Source: Naegleria gruberi
Lineage: Eukaryota
Assembly (NCBI GenBank): GCA_000004985.1
Contig: GG739119.1
Length of the DNA stretch: 7,683 nucleotides
Reading direction: 5' to 3' (one strand)
Shown: piece by piece, positions 1,475 through 7,683 of the stretch
Position numbering within the stretch: position 1 is the stretch's first letter
Layout: every line of letters starts with the position of its first letter
Made by a program: the position numbers and the translations under genes
The notes under the pieces: generated by a model
Told to the model about the DNA's origin: nothing
Databases searched by the model: none
Seen by the model: only the letters and a program-made list of their open reading frames with translations

Positions 1475-4400
1475 NNNNNNNNNNNNNNNNNNNNNNNNNN
1501 NNNNNNNNNNNNNNNNNNNNNNNNNNNNNNNNNNNNNNNNNNNNNNNNNNNNNNNNNNNNNNNNNNNNNNNNNNNNNNNNNNNNNNNNNNNNNNNNNNNN
1601 NNNNNNNNNNNNNNNNNNNNNNNNNNNNNNNNNNNNNNNNNNNNNNNNNNNNNNNNNNNNNNNNNNNNNNNNNNNNNNNNNNNNNNNNNNNNNNNNNNNN
1701 NNNNNNNNNNNNNNNNNNNNNNNNNNNNNNNNNNNNNNNNNNNNNNNNNNNNNNNNNNNNNNNNNNNNNNNNNNNNNNNNNNNNNNNNNNNNNNNNNNNN
1801 NNNNNNNNNNNNNNNNNNNNNNNNNNNNNNNNNNNNNNNNNNNNNNNNNNNNNNNNNNNNNNNNNNNNNNNNNNNNNNNNNNNNNNNNNNNNNNNNNNNN
1901 NNNNNNNNNNNNNNNNNNNNNNNNNNNNNNNNNNNNNNNNNNNNNNNNNNNNNNNNNNNNNNNNNNNNNNNNNNNNNNNNNNNNNNNNNNNNNNNNNNNN
2001 NNNNNNNNNNNNNNNNNNNNNNNNNNNNNNNNNNNNNNNNNNNNNNNNNNNNNNNNNNNNNNNNNNNNNNNNNNNNNNNNNNNNNNNNNNNNNNNNNNNN
2101 NNNNNNNNNNNNNNNNNNNNNNNNNNNNNNNNNNNNNNNNNNNNNNNNNNNNNNNNNNNNNNNNNNNNNNNNNNNNNNNNNNNNNNNNNNNNNNNNNNNN
2201 NNNNNNNNNNNNNNNNNNNNNNNNNNNNNNNNNNNNNNNNNNNNNNNNNNNNNNNNNNNNNNNNNNNNNNNNNNNNNNNNNNNNNNNNNNNNNNNNNNNN
2301 NNNNNNNNNNNNNNNNNNNNNNNNNNNNNNNNNNNNNNNNNNNNNNNNNNNNNNNNNNNNNNNNNNNNNNNNNNNNNNNNNNNNNNNNNNNNNNNNNNNN
2401 NNNNNNNNNNNNNNNNNNNNNNNNNNNNNNNNNNNNNNNNNNNNNNNNNNNNNNNNNNNNNNNNNNNNNNNNNNNNNNNNNNNNNNNNNNNNNNNNNNNN
2501 NNNNNNNNNNNNNNNNNNNNNNNNNNNNNNNNNNNNNNNNNNNNNNNNNNNNNNNNNNNNNNNNNNNNNNNNNNNNNNNNNNNNNNNNNNNNNNNNNNNN
2601 NNNNNNNNNNNNNNNNNNNNNNNNNNNNNNNNNNNNNNNNNNNNNNNNNNNNNNNNNNNNNNNNNNNNNNNNNNNNNNNNNNNNNNNNNNNNNNNNNNNN
2701 NNNNNNNNNNNNNNNNNNNNNNNNNNNNNNNNNNNNNNNNNNNNNNNNNNNNNNNNNNNNNNNNNNNNNNNNNNNNNNNNNNNNNNNNNNNNNNNNNNNN
2801 NNNNNNNNNNNNNNNNNNNNNNNNNNNNNNNNNNNNNNNNNNNNNNNNNNNNNNNNNNNNNNNNNNNNNNNNNNNNNNNNNNNNNNNNNNNNNNNNNNNN
2901 NNNNNNNNNNNNNNNNNNNNNNNNNNNNNNNNNNNNNNNNNNNNNNNNNNNNNNNNNNNNNNNNNNNNNNNNNNNNNNNNNNNNNNNNNNNNNNNNNNNN
3001 NNNNNNNNNNNNNNNNNNNNNNNNNNNNNNNNNNNNNNNNNNNNNNNNNNNNNNNNNNNNNNNNNNNNNNNNNNNNNNNNNNNNNNNNNNNNNNNNNNNN
3101 NNNNNNNNNNNNNNNNNNNNNNNNNNNNNNNNNNNNNNNNNNNNNNNNNNNNNNNNNNNNNNNNNNNNNNNNNNNNNNNNNNNNNNNNNNNNNNNNNNNN
3201 NNNNNNNNNNNNNNNNNNNNNNNNNNNNNNNNNNNNNNNNNNNNNNNNNNNNNNNNNNNNNNNNNNNNNNNNNNNNNNNNNNNNNNNNNNNNNNNNNNNN
3301 NNNNNNNNNNNNNNNNNNNNNNNNNNNNNNNNNNNNNNNNNNNNNNNNNNNNNNNNNNNNNNNNNNNNNNNNNNNNNNNNNNNNNNNNNNNNNNNNNNNN
3401 NNNNNNNNNNNNNNNNNNNNNNNNNNNNNNNNNNNNNNNNNNNNNNNNNNNNNNNNNNNNNNNNNNNNNNNNNNNNNNNNNNNNNNNNNNNNNNNNNNNN
3501 NNNNNNNNNNNNNNNNNNNNNNNNNNNNNNNNNNNNNNNNNNNNNNNNNNNNNNNNNNNNNNNNNNNNNNNNNNNNNNNNNNNNNNNNNNNNNNNNNNNN
3601 NNNNNNNNNNNNNNNNNNNNNNNNNNNNNNNNNNNNNNNNNNNNNNNNNNNNNNNNNNNNNNNNNNNNNNNNNNNNNNNNNNNNNNNNNNNNNNNNNNNN
3701 NNNNNNNNNNNNNNNNNNNNNNNNNNNNNNNNNNNNNNNNNNNNNNNNNNNNNNNNNNNNNNNNNNNNNNNNNNNNNNNNNNNNNNNNNNNNNNNNNNNN
3801 NNNNNNNNNNNNNNNNNNNNNNNNNNNNNNNNNNNNNNNNNNNNNNNNNNNNNNNNNNNNNNNNNNNNNNNNNNNNNNNNNNNNNNNNNNNNNNNNNNNN
3901 NNNNNNNNNNNNNNNNNNNNNNNNNNNNNNNNNNNNNNNNNNNNNNNNNNNNNNNNNNNNNNNNNNNNNNNNNNNNNNNNNNNNNNNNNNNNNNNNNNNN
4001 NNNNNNNNNNNNNNNNNNNNNNNNNNNNNNNNNNNNNNNNNNNNNNNNNNNNNNNNNNNNNNNNNNNNNNNNNNNNNNNNNNNNNNNNNNNNNNNNNNNN
4101 NNNNNNNNNNNNNNNNNNNNNNNNNNNNNNNNNNNNNNNNNNNNNNNNNNNNNNNNNNNNNNNNNNNNNNNNNNNNNNNNNNNNNNNNNNNNNNNNNNNN
4201 NNNNNNNNNNNNNNNNNNNNNNNNNNNNNNNNNNNNNNNNNNNNNNNNNNNNNNNNNNNNNNNNNNNNNNNNNNNNNNNNNNNNNNNNNNNNNNNNNNNN
4301 NNNNNNNNNNNNNNNNNNNNNNNNNNNNNNNNNNNNNNNNNNNNNNNNNNNNNNNNNNNNNNNNNNNNNNNNNNNNNNNNNNNNNNNNNNNNNNNNNNNN

Positions 4401-6157
4401 NNNNNNNNNNNNNNNNNNNNNNNNNNNNNNNNNNNNNNNNNNNNNNNNNNNNNNNNNNNNNNNNNNNNNNNNNNNNNNNNNNNNNNNNNNNNNNNNNNNN
4501 NNNNNNNNNNNNNNNNNNNNNNNNNNNNNNNNNNNNNNNNNNNNNNNNNNNNNNNNNNNNNNNNNNNNNNNNNNNNNNNNNNNNNNNNNNNNNNNNNNNN
4601 NNNNNNNNNNNNNNNNNNNNNNNNNNNNNNNNNNNNNNNNNNNNNNNNNNNNNNNNNNNNNNNNNNNNNNNNNNNNNNNNNNNNNNNNNNNNNNNNNNNN
4701 NNNNNNNNNNNNNNNNNNNNNNNNNNNNNNNNNNNNNNNNNNNNNNNNNNNNNNNNNNNNNNNNNNNNNNNNNNNNNNNNNNNNNNNNNNNNNNNNNNNN
4801 NNNNNNNNNNNNNNNNNNNNNNNNNNNNNNNNNNNNNNNNNNNNNNNNNNNNNNNNNNNNNNNNNNNNNNNNNNNNNNNNNNNNNNNNNNNNNNNNNNNN
4901 NNNNNNNNNNNNNNNNNNNNNNNNNNNNNNNNNNNNNNNNNNNNNNNNNNNNNNNNNNNNNNNNNNNNNNNNNNNNNNNNNNNNNNNNNNNNNNNNNNNN
5001 NNNNNNNNNNNNNNNNNNNNNNNNNNNNNNNNNNNNNNNNNNNNNNNNNNNNNNNNNNNNNNNNNNNNNNNNNNNNNNNNNNNNNNNNNNNNNNNNNNNN
5101 NNNNNNNNNNNNNNNNNNNNNNNNNNNNNNNNNNNNNNNNNNNNNNNNNNNNNNNNNNNNNNNNNNNNNNNNNNNNNNNNNNNNNNNNNNNNNNNNNNNN
5201 NNNNNNNNNNNNNNNNNNNNNNNNNNNNNNNNNNNNNNNNNNNNNNNNNNNNNNNNNNNNNNNNNNNNNNNNNNNNNNNNNNNNNNNNNNNNNNNNNNNN
5301 NNNNNNNNNNNNNNNNNNNNNNNNNNNNNNNNNNNNNNNNNNNNNNNNNNNNNNNNNNNNNNNNNNNNNNNNNNNNNNNNNNNNNNNNNNNNNNNNNNNN
5401 NNNNNNNNNNNNNNNNNNNNNNNNNNNNNNNNNNNNNNNNNNNNNNNNNNNNNNNNNNNNNNNNNNNNNNNNNNNNNNNNNNNNNNNNNNNNNNNNNNNN
5501 NNNNNNNNNNNNNNNNNNNNNNNNNNNNNNNNNNNNNNNNNNNNNNNNNNNNNNNNNNNNNNNNNNNNNNNNNNNNNNNNNNNNNNNNNNNNNNNNNNNN
5601 NNNNNNNNNNNNNNNNNNNNNNNNNNNNNNNNNNNNNNNNNNNNNNNNNNNNNNNNNNNNNNNNNNNNNNNNNNNNNNNNNNNNNNNNNNNNNNNNNNNN
5701 NNNNNNNNNNNNNNNNNNNNNNNNNNNNNNNNNNNNNNNNNNNNNNNNNNNNNNNNNNNNNNNNNNNNNNNNNNNNNNNNNNNNNNNNNNNNNNNNNNNN
5801 NNNNNNNNNNNNNNNNNNNNNNNNNNNNNNNNNNNNNNNNNNNNNNNNNNNNNNNNNNNNNNNNNNNNNNNNNNNNNNNNNNNNNNNNNNNNNNNNNNNN
5901 NNNNNNNNNNNNNNNNNNNNNNNNNNNNNNNNNNNNNNNNNNNNNNNNNNNNNNNNNNNNNNNNNNNNNNNNNNNNNNNNNNNNNNNNNNNNNNNNNNNN
6001 NNNNNNNNNNNNNNNNNNNNNNNNNNNNNNNNNNNNNNNNNNNNNNNNNNNNNNNNNNNNNNNNNNNNNNNNNNNNNNNNNNNNNNNNNNNNNNNNNNNN
6101 NNNNNNNNNNNNNNNNNNNNNNNNNNNNNNNNNNNNNNNNNNNNNNNNNNNNNNNNN
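1475..6157. other. Assembly or masking gap of 4683 consecutive N. Isolated single N positions lie at 1424 and 6295.
   Basis: The N run is directly visible. The long ORFs reported across it (990..6209, 1408..6474, 1279..6171 minus) are artefacts of translating N as X. Nothing inside the gap can be annotated. Confidence 0.98.
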
Positions 6158-6159
6158 TA

Positions 6160-6474
6160 GTTCCTATCCATCTCAGATCAGATCGAGAAATAGTAGAAAC
6201 TTTTATTAAGAATGTAAATTTATTTCTTTTTGATCCATCAAGTTTTCCTGATAGTCTATTGGAGGATAGTGAGTTTGTTTGGAGAATGATAGATNTGCGT
6301 CCTAATTTGATAAAAAAGTTTCCAAATCATGAATTTTTCAAAGAAAAGAAAATAATTCTCAAAATGATTTCTAAAAATATTCTCTGTAATGAAATTATTT
6401 CAAATGAACTTAGAGAGGACAGGGATATTAAATTGGCATTGATAAAAATAGGGAATTATCCATTCAAGGAATGA
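6160..6474 (+). CDS. C-terminal coding fragment, 5' partial and emerging from the gap, ending with TGA at 6472-6474. It is possibly the 3' end of the gene that starts at 990.
   Basis: A 105-codon open frame (window frame 1) runs immediately after the gap. It translates to VPIHLRSDREIVETFIKNVNLFLFDPSSFPDSLLEDSEFVWRMIDxRPNLIKKFPNHEFFKEKKIILKMISKNILCNEIISNELREDRDIKLALIKIGNYPFKE*. The composition is mixed and globular-like, not low-complexity. The other two forward frames close quickly (for example the 990 frame stops at 6209). It is followed by an AT-rich 3' region with TATATA. I do not recognise a domain family. Confidence 0.5.
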   Translation, partial: VPIHLRSDREIVETFIKNVNLFLFDPSSFPDSLLEDSEFVWRMIDXRPNLIKKFPNHEFFKEKKIILKMISKNILCNEIISNELREDRDIKLALIKIGNYPFKE

Positions 6475-6562
6475 AAGTAAAAGCTCAAAAACAAATTAAT
6501 GAAAGTGTGAATTTTTATTTGAAAAAAAATGAGGTTAAACCTGTGGTTATTTTCTCCATCGA

Positions 6563-6572
6563 TATAATATAT
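6563..6572 (+). promoter_or_regulatory. TATAATATAT element lying between two same-strand genes. It is a candidate 3'-end efficiency element for the upstream gene and/or TATA box for the downstream gene.
   Basis: Sequence gatataatatatgaaaag sits 89 nt after the stop at 6474 and about 150 nt before the ATG at 6720. In budding yeast, TATATA-type elements act as mRNA 3'-end efficiency elements and TATA boxes lie roughly 40-150 nt upstream of start sites. This is established knowledge applied by inference and depends on the yeast-like assumption. Confidence 0.3.
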
Positions 6573-6679
6573 GAAAAGGAGATATTTGAACCTCTGATAG
6601 TTTTACAAGCCTAGTTTGTGTGGTTAAAATTTGAAAGACTAAGGCTTTCCAAAAAGGGTTAAAATTGATATCTTTCTGA

Positions 6680-6709
6680 TGCGTCGACCGGGAATTGAAC
6701 CCGGGAACT
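6680..6709 (-). pseudogene. tRNA 3'-half-like fragment. It has a variable loop, T-arm, 3' acceptor strand and discriminator, but no 5' half.
   Basis: Minus strand reads agttc-CCGGG-TTCAATT-CCCGG-TCGACGC-A. The 5-bp T-stem is perfect (CCGGG/CCCGG with a G53-C61 closing pair). The 7-nt T-loop TTCAATT matches T54-T55-C56-R57-A58-N-N. A 7-nt 3' acceptor strand and discriminator A follow. Minus-strand upstream sequence (gtggagacatttttt-gaggt) has a T6 run where the anticodon loop would be and cannot form an anticodon stem. No GCGTCGA partner for the acceptor strand exists in the readable window. On the minus strand a TTTT lies 16 nt downstream of the 3' end (AAAA at 6661-6664 on +). Confidence 0.45.
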
Positions 6710-6719
6710 ACCTCAAAAA

Positions 6720-7676
6720 ATGTCTCCACATCATCTATTAATTCTGCTCTTGCTCATTTTCTTGCTGGTTGGCATTCAAATCCAACACACAAACCAGCAG
6801 GAAATTAAATTTATCAGAAAATCATCACTGATACATCAGGAAATATCATCAGATCAATGGAAACAATCATCTATAGATGATGATCAAGCCTATTTAATGG
6901 AAGAAATAGATTGGACACTCTCCGATCACTATTTTACACATTGTTGGAATACCACTCGATTAATGAGAGATGATTTGTATTATGATAGGATGTTTACGAT
7001 GGGAGAGGAGATTCCATCTTCATTCGGATGTACTTCTATTCGATTACCAACTGTTTATGAATATTATCCATATAATAGGAAATCAATTTATAATTCAGAA
7101 TTGAGAAATATTGGATTGGAGGATGAGGCATTATGTTCGAGAGTTGCTGATTGGGAACGAAATTTAAATGTGAGCTGTCAGACATTATTATGTGAAATGG
7201 ATGGGAAAAGTGAAGGATATTCAGATTTGAATGCAATGATTAGACAAAGAACTGATTCAAAGACCAGAATTGAAGATTGGGTTAATTATTGTCAATATTG
7301 TAAAGTGGATAATTTGAGGAAATATAGGGAAGAAAAGAAATGTAATCCCAAAGATGAAACTGCCAATTTTTTAATTAGAAAGTTTCCAAACTCTGCATTC
7401 TTTTGTGGATTTCACCAATTTGGAATACCCTTCATTATTAATACGTCGAGAATTGTTGATTTATCAGTGCCTCTGGAACATACTGATTTTTCATTCATTT
7501 GCTATTGTAGAGAGAGCCAGGCCTTTCACTTTAAATGTCCAGATGTGACAACTGAATTCGAGTTGAAAACTGAATATTTTGCATTTTTACTCACAATATT
7601 TAACAGTGTTTCGATAATATCTACGTTAGTATTACCAAAAGGATTTTCAATGATTAAGGATCGCAAAATTAATTGA
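6720..7676 (+). CDS. Intronless gene for a secreted or type I membrane, cysteine-rich protein of 318 aa. It has an N-terminal signal peptide, 12 Cys, three N-glycosylation sequons and a C-terminal transmembrane segment with a short basic tail. The family is not recognised.
   Basis: Start context ctcaaaaaATGtct. This ATG is the first in frame after an upstream TGA at 6696-6698. The 319-codon ORF ends with TGA at 7674-7676. The N-terminus MSPHHLLILLLLIFLLVGIQ is a classic signal peptide (h-region L/I/F-rich). Cysteines occur in motifs HCW, GCTS, LCSR, SCQTLLCEMDG, NYCQYCK, KKCNPK, FFCGFH, ICYCRE and FKCPDV. Sequons are NTT, NVS and NTS. The C-terminal hydrophobic stretch FAFLLTIFNSVSIISTLVL is followed by PKGFSMIKDRKIN. 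The amino-acid composition is protein-like (W, Y, D, E, C distributed). Codon usage is TTA-, AGA- and ATA-rich. Confidence 0.7.
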   Translation: MSPHHLLILLLLIFLLVGIQIQHTNQQEIKFIRKSSLIHQEISSDQWKQSSIDDDQAYLMEEIDWTLSDHYFTHCWNTTRLMRDDLYYDRMFTMGEEIPSSFGCTSIRLPTVYEYYPYNRKSIYNSELRNIGLEDEALCSRVADWERNLNVSCQTLLCEMDGKSEGYSDLNAMIRQRTDSKTRIEDWVNYCQYCKVDNLRKYREEKKCNPKDETANFLIRKFPNSAFFCGFHQFGIPFIINTSRIVDLSVPLEHTDFSFICYCRESQAFHFKCPDVTTEFELKTEYFAFLLTIFNSVSIISTLVLPKGFSMIKDRKIN

Positions 7677-7683
7677 ACATGTG

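Follow-up and report, generated by a model that had tools for sequence, protein, structure and literature searches.

The 30 nucleotides at 6709..6680 (minus strand) of the window, a 7,683-bp Naegleria gruberi scaffold, are best read as the non-functional relic of a nuclear tRNA-Gly gene, likeliest one with the anticodon UCC, that was cut near tRNA position 44–48 (a reading to which we give a probability of about 0.75). An earlier note on this DNA had described here an orphan tRNA 3' portion with a perfect T arm, acceptor 3' strand and discriminator, and both sequence and coordinates are as claimed, with truncation of a tRNA gene, the first of the origins it listed, being the one favoured by the evidence. 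Read as a minus-strand tRNA (positions ~44–73), the fragment consists of AGTT (6706–6709), C48 (6705), CCGGG (positions 49–53; 6700–6704), the T loop TTCAATT (54–60; 6693–6699), CCCGG (61–65; 6688–6692), the acceptor 3' strand TCGACGC (66–72; 6681–6687), and A73 (6680), thereby comprising the last bases of the variable loop, a perfect T arm, an intact B box, and the 3' side of the acceptor stem with its discriminator. The B box, GGTTCAATTCC (tRNA positions 52–62; 6691–6701), fits the consensus GGTTCGANNCC at 10 of 11 bases, the sole mismatch being an A for G at position 57, which is also present in 13 intact tRNA-Gly genes among those retrieved. The canonical residues that the earlier note had listed between positions 53 and 61 (G53, T54, T55, C56, A58, and C61) are all present, together with R57 and a 5-bp stem, and what survives of the gene shows no decay. 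Homology to tRNA is certain for 6680–6705 (positions 48–73) and uncertain for the four bases at 6706–6709, with the breakpoint falling within the 6710–6719 spacer or at most 4 nt into the relic.

This assignment is carried by the sequence itself, by a 25-mer found only in tRNA-Gly, and by profile and covariance model searches. A tRNA-Gly profile covering columns 44–72 scores 49.9 bits at the relic compared with -11.0 ± 5.9 bits in shuffled sequences, a score reached solely in windows overlapping the fragment. The tRNA-Gly covariance model scores 26.3 bits at the site (E = 3e-5), and a local match on positions 47–64 scores 18 bits; across 78 kb of Naegleria DNA from elsewhere, scores of this model do not exceed 8.1 bits. 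The same bases are matched by Rfam models whose T arm resembles that of a tRNA, namely tmRNA, mascRNA, and Plastid-ycf2, the last through its antisense trnI part.

The 25-mer, running from the T stem to A73, occurs at more than 130 public loci (at least 120 in metagenomes and 14 in archaeal or bacterial genomes), with all 132 complete ARAGORN tRNAs that contain it being tRNA-Gly. These 132 genes represent 31 distinct full-length sequences, and their anticodons are UCC in 120 cases, GCC in 8, and CCC in 4; the few unassigned matches are tRNA-Gly genes with introns or cut by contig ends. The earlier note had looked to intact tRNAs sharing the T arm and acceptor strand of the 30-mer as a means of recognising the parent, and in these public metagenome, archaeal, and bacterial collections, from which the isotype assignment is drawn, all such tRNAs are indeed tRNA-Gly. 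Sequence matching thus identifies the parent of the relic as a tRNA-Gly gene, the anticodon of which was probably UCC.

No 5' half accompanies the fragment in any layout within the window, as had been claimed. ARAGORN calls no tRNA in the window at default settings, and at relaxed thresholds of 95–70% still calls none over the fragment, false positives appearing elsewhere from 80%. The complement of the acceptor strand, GCGTCGA, is likewise missing from the minus strand of the whole window, in agreement with the claim that none lies nearby. Across the 51 nt that adjoin the relic on its 5' side, profiles of the acceptor 5' strand (p = 0.83), A box (p = 0.39), D arm (p = 0.34), and anticodon arm (p = 0.88) all score at chance, with the A-box and D-arm scores equalled by 13–17% of genomic windows. 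The best place for a tRNA-Gly 5' half anywhere in the window scores 4.7 bits compared with 62 bits for the positive control, the 5' half of a human tRNA-Gly-UCC. Instead, the place of the 5' half is taken by a 10-nt spacer (6710..6719), in which 5'-half profiles remain at chance, and by the first 32 nt (first 11 codons) of the neighbouring coding sequence. The TTTTTT said to stand in place of the 5' half is found on the minus strand at 6720..6715, and corresponds on the plus strand to six A residues formed by the end of the spacer and the A of the ATG.

A degenerate whole tRNA was also considered, as the covariance model can be fitted along its whole length to 6744..6680, which places an A-box-like TAGATGATGTGG and a D stem able to pair within the coding sequence. 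The 5' part of this alignment is forced and not significant, its anticodon arm spans 7 nt compared with the 15 expected, and the reading was dropped because the 5' resemblance is at chance against both shuffled sequences and genomic windows.

The perfect preservation of the 3' piece would also suit a tRNA-Gly gene that still works in split or circularly permuted form. Such arrangements share with the present locus a 3' half not preceded by its 5' half, and are known from the red alga Cyanidioschyzon merolae, some green algae, Nanoarchaeum, and other archaea (PMC3978253 and PMC3218864). In permuted genes, however, the 5' half follows within tens of nucleotides of the 3' half, whereas the 180 nt downstream of the relic give -5.7 and -3.7 bits with the 5'-half profiles (p = 0.09 and 0.34), compared with 62 and 37 bits for the control. 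The halves of split genes carry complementary leader or trailer sequences and have a partner gene, and no such partner lies in the readable ~3 kb of the window. Furthermore, the T6 run immediately upstream would halt Pol III arriving from that direction, and our literature search returned no report of such genes in Heterolobosea. The earlier note had itself thought this arrangement unlikely, and on the present evidence it is exceedingly so. Separately, a minihelix was considered in minus-strand RNA from 6725..6670, where the hairpin is extended by partial pairing of GGUAGUU with the acceptor 3' strand. The fold (-16 kcal/mol, z = -2.2, with 7 of 200 shuffles as good) is weak and was noticed post hoc, the T6 run speaks against transcription by Pol III, and the reading was rejected.

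The relic of a truncated tRNA-Gly gene therefore remains the preferred reading. We propose that a deletion or rearrangement with its breakpoint between 6706 and 6719 would have removed the acceptor 5' strand, A box, D arm, and anticodon arm, with the same event bringing the start and signal-peptide codons of a Naegleria-specific gene into the vacated place. The sequence following the relic on its 3' side would then be the former 3' flank of the tRNA gene. The T runs in this flank (minus strand, 6651..6664), TTTT at 6664..6661 and TTTTT at 6655..6651, begin 16 and 25 nt past A73 and are compatible with a former Pol III terminator, yet are uninformative in such AT-rich DNA, where runs of at least four T occur once per ~74 nt per strand. 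With no A box and a T6 run just upstream, Pol III transcription of the relic as a tRNA is not expected; nor can the relic fold into a cloverleaf, so that it makes no tRNA, and it appears to be inert. Its lack of decay is a point against this reading, and may reflect either recent truncation or constraint. With a genome of ~41 Mb, N. gruberi would carry about one tDNA per 44 kb. The 924 tDNAs underlying this figure were reported by tRNAscan-type surveys (PMC2888827), an abundance at which decayed or broken copies are to be expected. This count was all that a search of the literature for Naegleria tRNA fragments, split tRNAs, and promoter structure turned up.

The relic lies in a 245-nt intergenic region bounded on its left by the 3' end of a gene with DUF4116 repeats (6175..6474, plus strand), the C-terminus of which returned no match when used as a query for homologues. 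On its right, and 10 nt away as the earlier note had stated, the ATG at 6720 opens the 5' part of NAEGRDRAFT_76743 (XP_002668346; 6720..7676, plus strand). The product is a membrane protein of a Naegleria-only family, with a signal-peptide-like start followed by a Cys-rich N-terminal domain, and the open reading frame contains no Pfam domain and no retroelement domains. Tandem paralogues are found in N. fowleri and N. lovaniensis in normal chromosomal contexts, and the neighbour is an ordinary host gene. The loci around homologous genes of N. fowleri and N. lovaniensis and on Naegleria-like metagenome contigs contain no tRNA or tRNA-Gly piece over 78 kb, indicating that the pairing of relic and gene is specific to the present locus; the association looks accidental.

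The quality of the scaffold raises the question of an assembly or cloning artefact, in which a chimeric read or mis-join in a thinly covered 1.5-kb contig would have fused part of a tRNA-Gly gene to the 5' end of the membrane-protein gene. The scaffold, 61% of which is a run of N (a gap of 4,683 nt), with further single N's at 1424 and 6295, is redundant, duplicating at lower quality a locus on the 290-kb N. gruberi scaffold. Its right-hand contig measures 1,526 nt and has one ambiguous base, and the stop at 7674 in NAEGRDRAFT_76743 is probably due to a 1-nt deletion near the scaffold end, as judged against the second copy. However, a random chimeric junction would need to land in a 10–14 nt window right before the ATG, a search for vector- or plasmid-like sequence gave no match, and base composition and the AT-rich flanks run on unbroken through the junction. 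Additionally, the start of the coding sequence is reproduced in the other copy, a second gene model (NAEGRDRAFT_73520) on the 290,827-bp scaffold that is identical over the first 47 residues and at 315 of 318 residues overall, meaning that the sequence replacing the 5' half recurs in an independent piece of the assembly. Taken together, these observations make an artefact distinctly improbable.

The coding sequence cannot reach further upstream because of an in-frame stop at 6696–6698, and the relic, spanning -40 to -11 as counted from the ATG, must therefore belong to the promoter or 5' UTR. With the breakpoint only 10 nt before the start codon, any earlier promoter of the gene would be gone and its expression would depend on the relic or the DNA flanking it, a situation that gives co-option some scope. 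The relic may accordingly act on the 6720 gene as a putative TFIIIC-binding B box resembling an extra-TFIIIC (ETC) site, or as an antisense copy in the core promoter or 5' UTR, where the hairpin CCGGG-N7-CCCGG would lie 16–32 nt before the AUG. This is consistent with the undecayed state of the relic, its placement, and its B box, intact at C56 and A58 and departing from the consensus at position 57 alone, and B-box-only sites are known to bind TFIIIC without Pol III and to serve as barriers or insulators in yeast and human (reviewed in PMC12409998). Against it, no such element accompanies the homologous genes of N. fowleri and N. lovaniensis, plus-strand RNA around the relic folds no better than shuffled sequences (z = 0.16), and a recent origin explains the lack of decay equally well. 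The yeast setting in which the earlier note had framed such effects does not apply to the amoeboflagellate N. gruberi. Co-option, as suggested by motif and position, is unlikely, although it is the alternative to which we give most weight.

An antisense tRNA 3' end followed, after a short spacer, by an open reading frame is also the layout of an LTR-retroelement primer-binding site before gag, and a trace of a mobile or repeated element may further take the form of a tRNA-derived SINE head, or of an orphan tRNA 3' repeat marking the far end of an element integrated into a tRNA-Gly gene. In prokaryotes, site-specific integration into tRNA genes leaves a sharp-edged, perfect tRNA 3' piece, which the present fragment resembles in its sharp boundary and perfect match. 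The absence of an A box means that the relic is not a SINE head, and the earlier note's suggestion of a SINE or retroelement origin is made unlikely by this point and by the lack of retroelement domains in the neighbouring gene, which belongs to a host membrane-protein family. Primer-binding sites contain TGG, the complement of CCA, and end ~18 nt in, at position 58/59, whereas the present sequence reads TGA and extends its complementarity over at least 26 nt, with no LTR, gag, or pol at the locus. There are no flanking repeats within the contig, no further copies of the tRNA piece in the window or in 78 kb of other Naegleria loci, and no match to the 25-mer among viral contigs. A mobile-element origin is thus very improbable, and a truncated tRNA-Gly gene continues to explain the fragment best.

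The fragment is an ordinary gene relic rather than a new kind of element, truncated tRNA genes being already known as a by-product of genome rearrangement and of little importance in themselves. It adds one unannotated tRNA-Gly relic to the N. gruberi genome, and would gain interest only if its B box, or the hairpin in the antisense copy, proved to act on the neighbouring gene. Were this the case, a broken tRNA gene would have become the foundation of a Pol II gene start in a heterolobosean, a group in which ETC-like elements and promoter architecture are essentially unexplored.

Among known systems, the best plus-strand Rfam match is to RF04354, the Plastid-ycf2 5' UTR RNA (23.9 bits, E = 0.0011, far short of the gathering score of 65.7). 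Judged by the chloroplast trnI-CAU sequence, the 5' end of this model is presumably also an antisense tRNA 3' end before a protein gene. The match is limited to the tRNA-derived half of the model, the isotype differs, being Gly, and the genome is a nuclear one from a protist; the fragment resembles the family without belonging to it. With the ETC sites of yeasts and mammals, the locus shares a stand-alone B box near a Pol II gene start, the consensus at 6691–6701 being accompanied by neither an A box nor a transcribed Pol III gene. TFIIIC occupancy is what defines an ETC site, however, and the B box of such sites is often extended and conserved (PMC12409998), whereas the present B box is plainly a tRNA-gene leftover with the acceptor strand still attached. 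The closest likeness is to the truncated tRNA pseudogenes and tDNA relics of eukaryotic nuclear genomes, with which the relic shares tRNA-grade identity, a partial cloverleaf, the loss of one internal promoter box, an intergenic position, and a tDNA-rich genome. There is no essential difference from these, the particulars of the present relic being its clean cut near position 44–48, its lack of decay, and its position 10 nt from a start codon.

Minus-strand positions 6709..6680 read AGTT C CCGGG TTCAATT CCCGG TCGACGC A. Here the 5-bp T stem is perfect, the T loop (T54 T55 C56 A57 A58) is canonical, and C61, the 7-nt acceptor 3' strand, and A73 are all retained. The B box GGTTCAATTCC is evident in the sequence at 6691-6701 on the same strand. 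The identification of this piece in the earlier note as an orphan tRNA 3' portion with a canonical T arm is borne out by a tRNA-Gly profile of columns 44-72, which scores 49.9 bits at the fragment vs -11.0±5.9 in shuffles, and by a covariance model of 25 tRNA-Gly sequences, taken from the 25-mer-bearing genes described below, which matches with 26.3 bits (E 3e-5). With its filters switched off, this model found nothing above 8.1 bits in 78 kb from other Naegleria loci, namely those of N. fowleri and N. lovaniensis together with Naegleria-like metagenome contigs, and ARAGORN found no tRNA in that DNA. Exactly the fragment bases are also matched by the tRNA-like T-arm models of Rfam, namely tmRNA (E 3e-5) and mascRNA, and, on the plus strand, by the Plastid-ycf2 5' UTR model, the first half of which we take to be an antisense tRNA 3' end, judging by the chloroplast trnI-CAU sequence.

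The 25-mer CCGGGTTCRATTCCCGGTCGACGCA, which spans the T stem of the fragment through A73, occurs in public collections at no fewer than 120 metagenome loci and at 14 archaeal or bacterial genome loci, with none found in viral contigs. Among the matches listed, all 132 ARAGORN tRNA genes containing the 25-mer are tRNA-Gly (120 UCC, 8 GCC, and 4 CCC), and the eight listed matches outside called tRNAs are either tRNA-Gly cut by a contig end or intron-bearing archaeal tRNA-Gly. The metagenome matches are not independent, since most come from one kind of tRNA-gene-packed marine contig; however, 31 different full-length sequences, drawn from several lineages, are represented among the listed tRNAs, and because all of these are Gly, the parent of the fragment is judged from sequence to be a tRNA-Gly, most likely with a UCC anticodon. 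The T arm and NCNAYGC-A acceptor end also fit eukaryotic cytosolic tRNA-Gly in general. As a separate observation, 104 of the 134 listed loci, including L001, L009, L011, and L091, are very dense tRNA-gene arrays reaching 10 tRNA genes per kb (59 tRNAs in 8,147 nt of L001 and 34 in 3,240 nt of L091), many with JGI or TARA contig names and apparently marine.

ARAGORN at default settings finds no tRNA in the window and, when relaxed to 70% of its thresholds, returns false positives elsewhere and nothing over the fragment. The motif GCGTCGA is absent from the minus strand throughout the window. Position-specific tRNA-Gly profiles, controlled with shuffles and with the remaining 51-nt windows of readable scaffold sequence, are at chance beside the fragment for tRNA columns 1-26 (p = 0.55 vs shuffles), the D arm (p = 0.34), the A box (p = 0.39), the acceptor 5' strand (p = 0.83), and the anticodon arm (p = 0.88). 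The missing A box contradicts the suggestion that the fragment is the tRNA-derived head of a SINE. A permuted tRNA gene, also raised earlier, is likewise contradicted, and a split one is very unlikely, with the 5'-half profiles at chance across the 180 nt that follow on the minus strand, where a permuted gene would have its 5' half, and reaching at best 4.7 bits anywhere in the window vs 62 bits for a positive control, a human tRNA-Gly-UCC 5' half that was not part of the model. No such genes in Heterolobosea came up in our literature searches. As the profiles are at chance beside the fragment, downstream, and window-wide, and relaxed ARAGORN finds nothing, the 5' half is absent rather than merely degraded, and tRNA homology ends between 6706 and 6719. 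An end-to-end covariance-model alignment of 6744..6680, in which the CDS stretch GAATTAATAGATGATGTGGAGACATTTT is matched to the acceptor 5' strand and to the D arm, was rejected as resemblance at chance.

Several local features were also noted. Inside the CDS, a 13-nt inverted repeat (6758-6804, minus strand, 92% complementary) encloses TTGGATTTGAATGCCAA, a weak second T-arm/acceptor look-alike ~55 nt upstream of the fragment on the same strand, which scores 4.4 bits (E 8) with the tRNA-Gly model, a chance level, and also lies behind the tmRNA alignment and one ARAGORN false positive at the 70% threshold. Downstream of the fragment in the tRNA sense, an exact 10-nt intergenic direct repeat, GGTTAAAATT, occurs at 6622-6631 and 6657-6666, 35 nt apart; such two-copy repeats often arise by chance in AT-rich DNA. 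The minus-strand RNA of 6670-6725 folds into an extended hairpin (-16 kcal/mol, z = -2.2, equalled by 7 of 200 shuffles), in which GGUAGUU pairs partly with the acceptor 3' strand and UUUUUGA with UCAGAAA; a minihelix-like character of this modelled fold is weakly supported.

The fragment is best read as the dead remnant of a tRNA-Gly gene of the nucleus, in line with the truncated gene listed first in the earlier note. A deletion or rearrangement would have taken away tRNA positions 1 to about 44-47, leaving behind the T arm with the acceptor 3' strand and what had been the gene's 3' flank. Taking the N. gruberi genome to be ~41 Mb, tDNAs lie at roughly one per 44 kb. With 924 tDNAs reported for this species (PMC2888827) at such a density, broken copies are expected. 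The T runs found 16 and 25 nt past A73 of the relic are uninformative, as such runs occur every ~74 nt. Without an A box, and with a minus-strand T6 run (6720..6715) directly upstream, no Pol III transcript is expected; no cloverleaf could form, and we infer that the relic is inert.

On the 1,526-nt right-hand contig, the relic occupies part of a 245-nt intergenic region running from the stop of a DUF4116-repeat gene (6474) to the ATG at 6720, from which a 10-nt spacer separates it. The window is an entire small N. gruberi scaffold, readable at 1-1474 and 6158-7683 (G+C 31.6%), with a run of N at 1475-6157 (61% of the scaffold) and single N's at 1424 and 6295; long 'ORFs' spanning 1475-6157 are artefacts that arise when N is translated. 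At 990-1474 on the plus strand is the start of a gene that runs into the gap and encodes a Lys/Thr/Glu-rich low-complexity protein (MVNNKKNNKKTS...).

ORF 6720-7676 is 100% identical to XP_002668346 (NAEGRDRAFT_76743; 'predicted protein [Naegleria gruberi]') and is kept from extending upstream by a TGA in the same frame (6696-6698) that falls within the T loop. Its N-terminus, MSPHHLLILLLLIFLLVGIQ, looks like a signal peptide, and no Pfam domain was found in the protein. Exhaustive HMMER searching gave 31 relatives at 50% clustering, and the ten looked up are Naegleria or unnamed metagenome proteins; the family appears restricted to Naegleria. In N. fowleri and N. lovaniensis (L135 10001-15004, L136 5855-11591), two to three homologues stand in tandem, with LRR and TCP1 chaperonin genes upstream and PH/beta-helix and RRM genes downstream in both. 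This is an ordinary host gene family rather than the cargo of a mobile element, and an integration-site repeat is disfavoured by such a neighbour. Within the CDS, the Rfam snoR64 (C/D box snoRNA) match at 7135-7232 on the plus strand (27 bits, E 0.099, gathering score 45) is probably chance.

A second N. gruberi model in the same 90% cluster, XP_002671438 (NAEGRDRAFT_73520, 499 aa, on a 290,827-bp scaffold), is identical to the window protein at 315 of 318 residues and shares its N-terminus; its first 11 codons cover the place of the tRNA 5' half, which is thus missing from this place in that copy too. As the longer protein reads on as N W N M L where the window has aat tga aca tgt g (within 7660-7683), the stop at 7674-7676 probably stems from a 1-nt deletion near the scaffold end. 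Given this probable deletion and the near-identical second model, the small scaffold appears redundant, as an allele or a duplicate of the locus on the 290,827-bp scaffold, and of lower quality. Such quality makes an assembly chimera possible. Its junction, if random, would need to land ~10 nt or less from the ATG, and neither vector nor plasmid sequence was found.

The relic may nevertheless be functional, as its 26-30 nt survive without decay and its position is necessarily the promoter or 5' leader of the 6720 gene. At yeast and human ETC sites, TFIIIC can bind where an intact B box stands by itself (PMC12409998). Against such a role, the mRNA strand here folds no better than shuffles (z = 0.16), and the homologous genes of N. 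fowleri, N. lovaniensis, and Naegleria-like metagenome contigs have no such element.

Three points contradict a primer-binding site: the match runs for at least 26 nt, neither an LTR nor gag/pol is present, and the fragment has TGA where TGG is expected in such a site. The truncated tRNA gene is a kind of feature already known.
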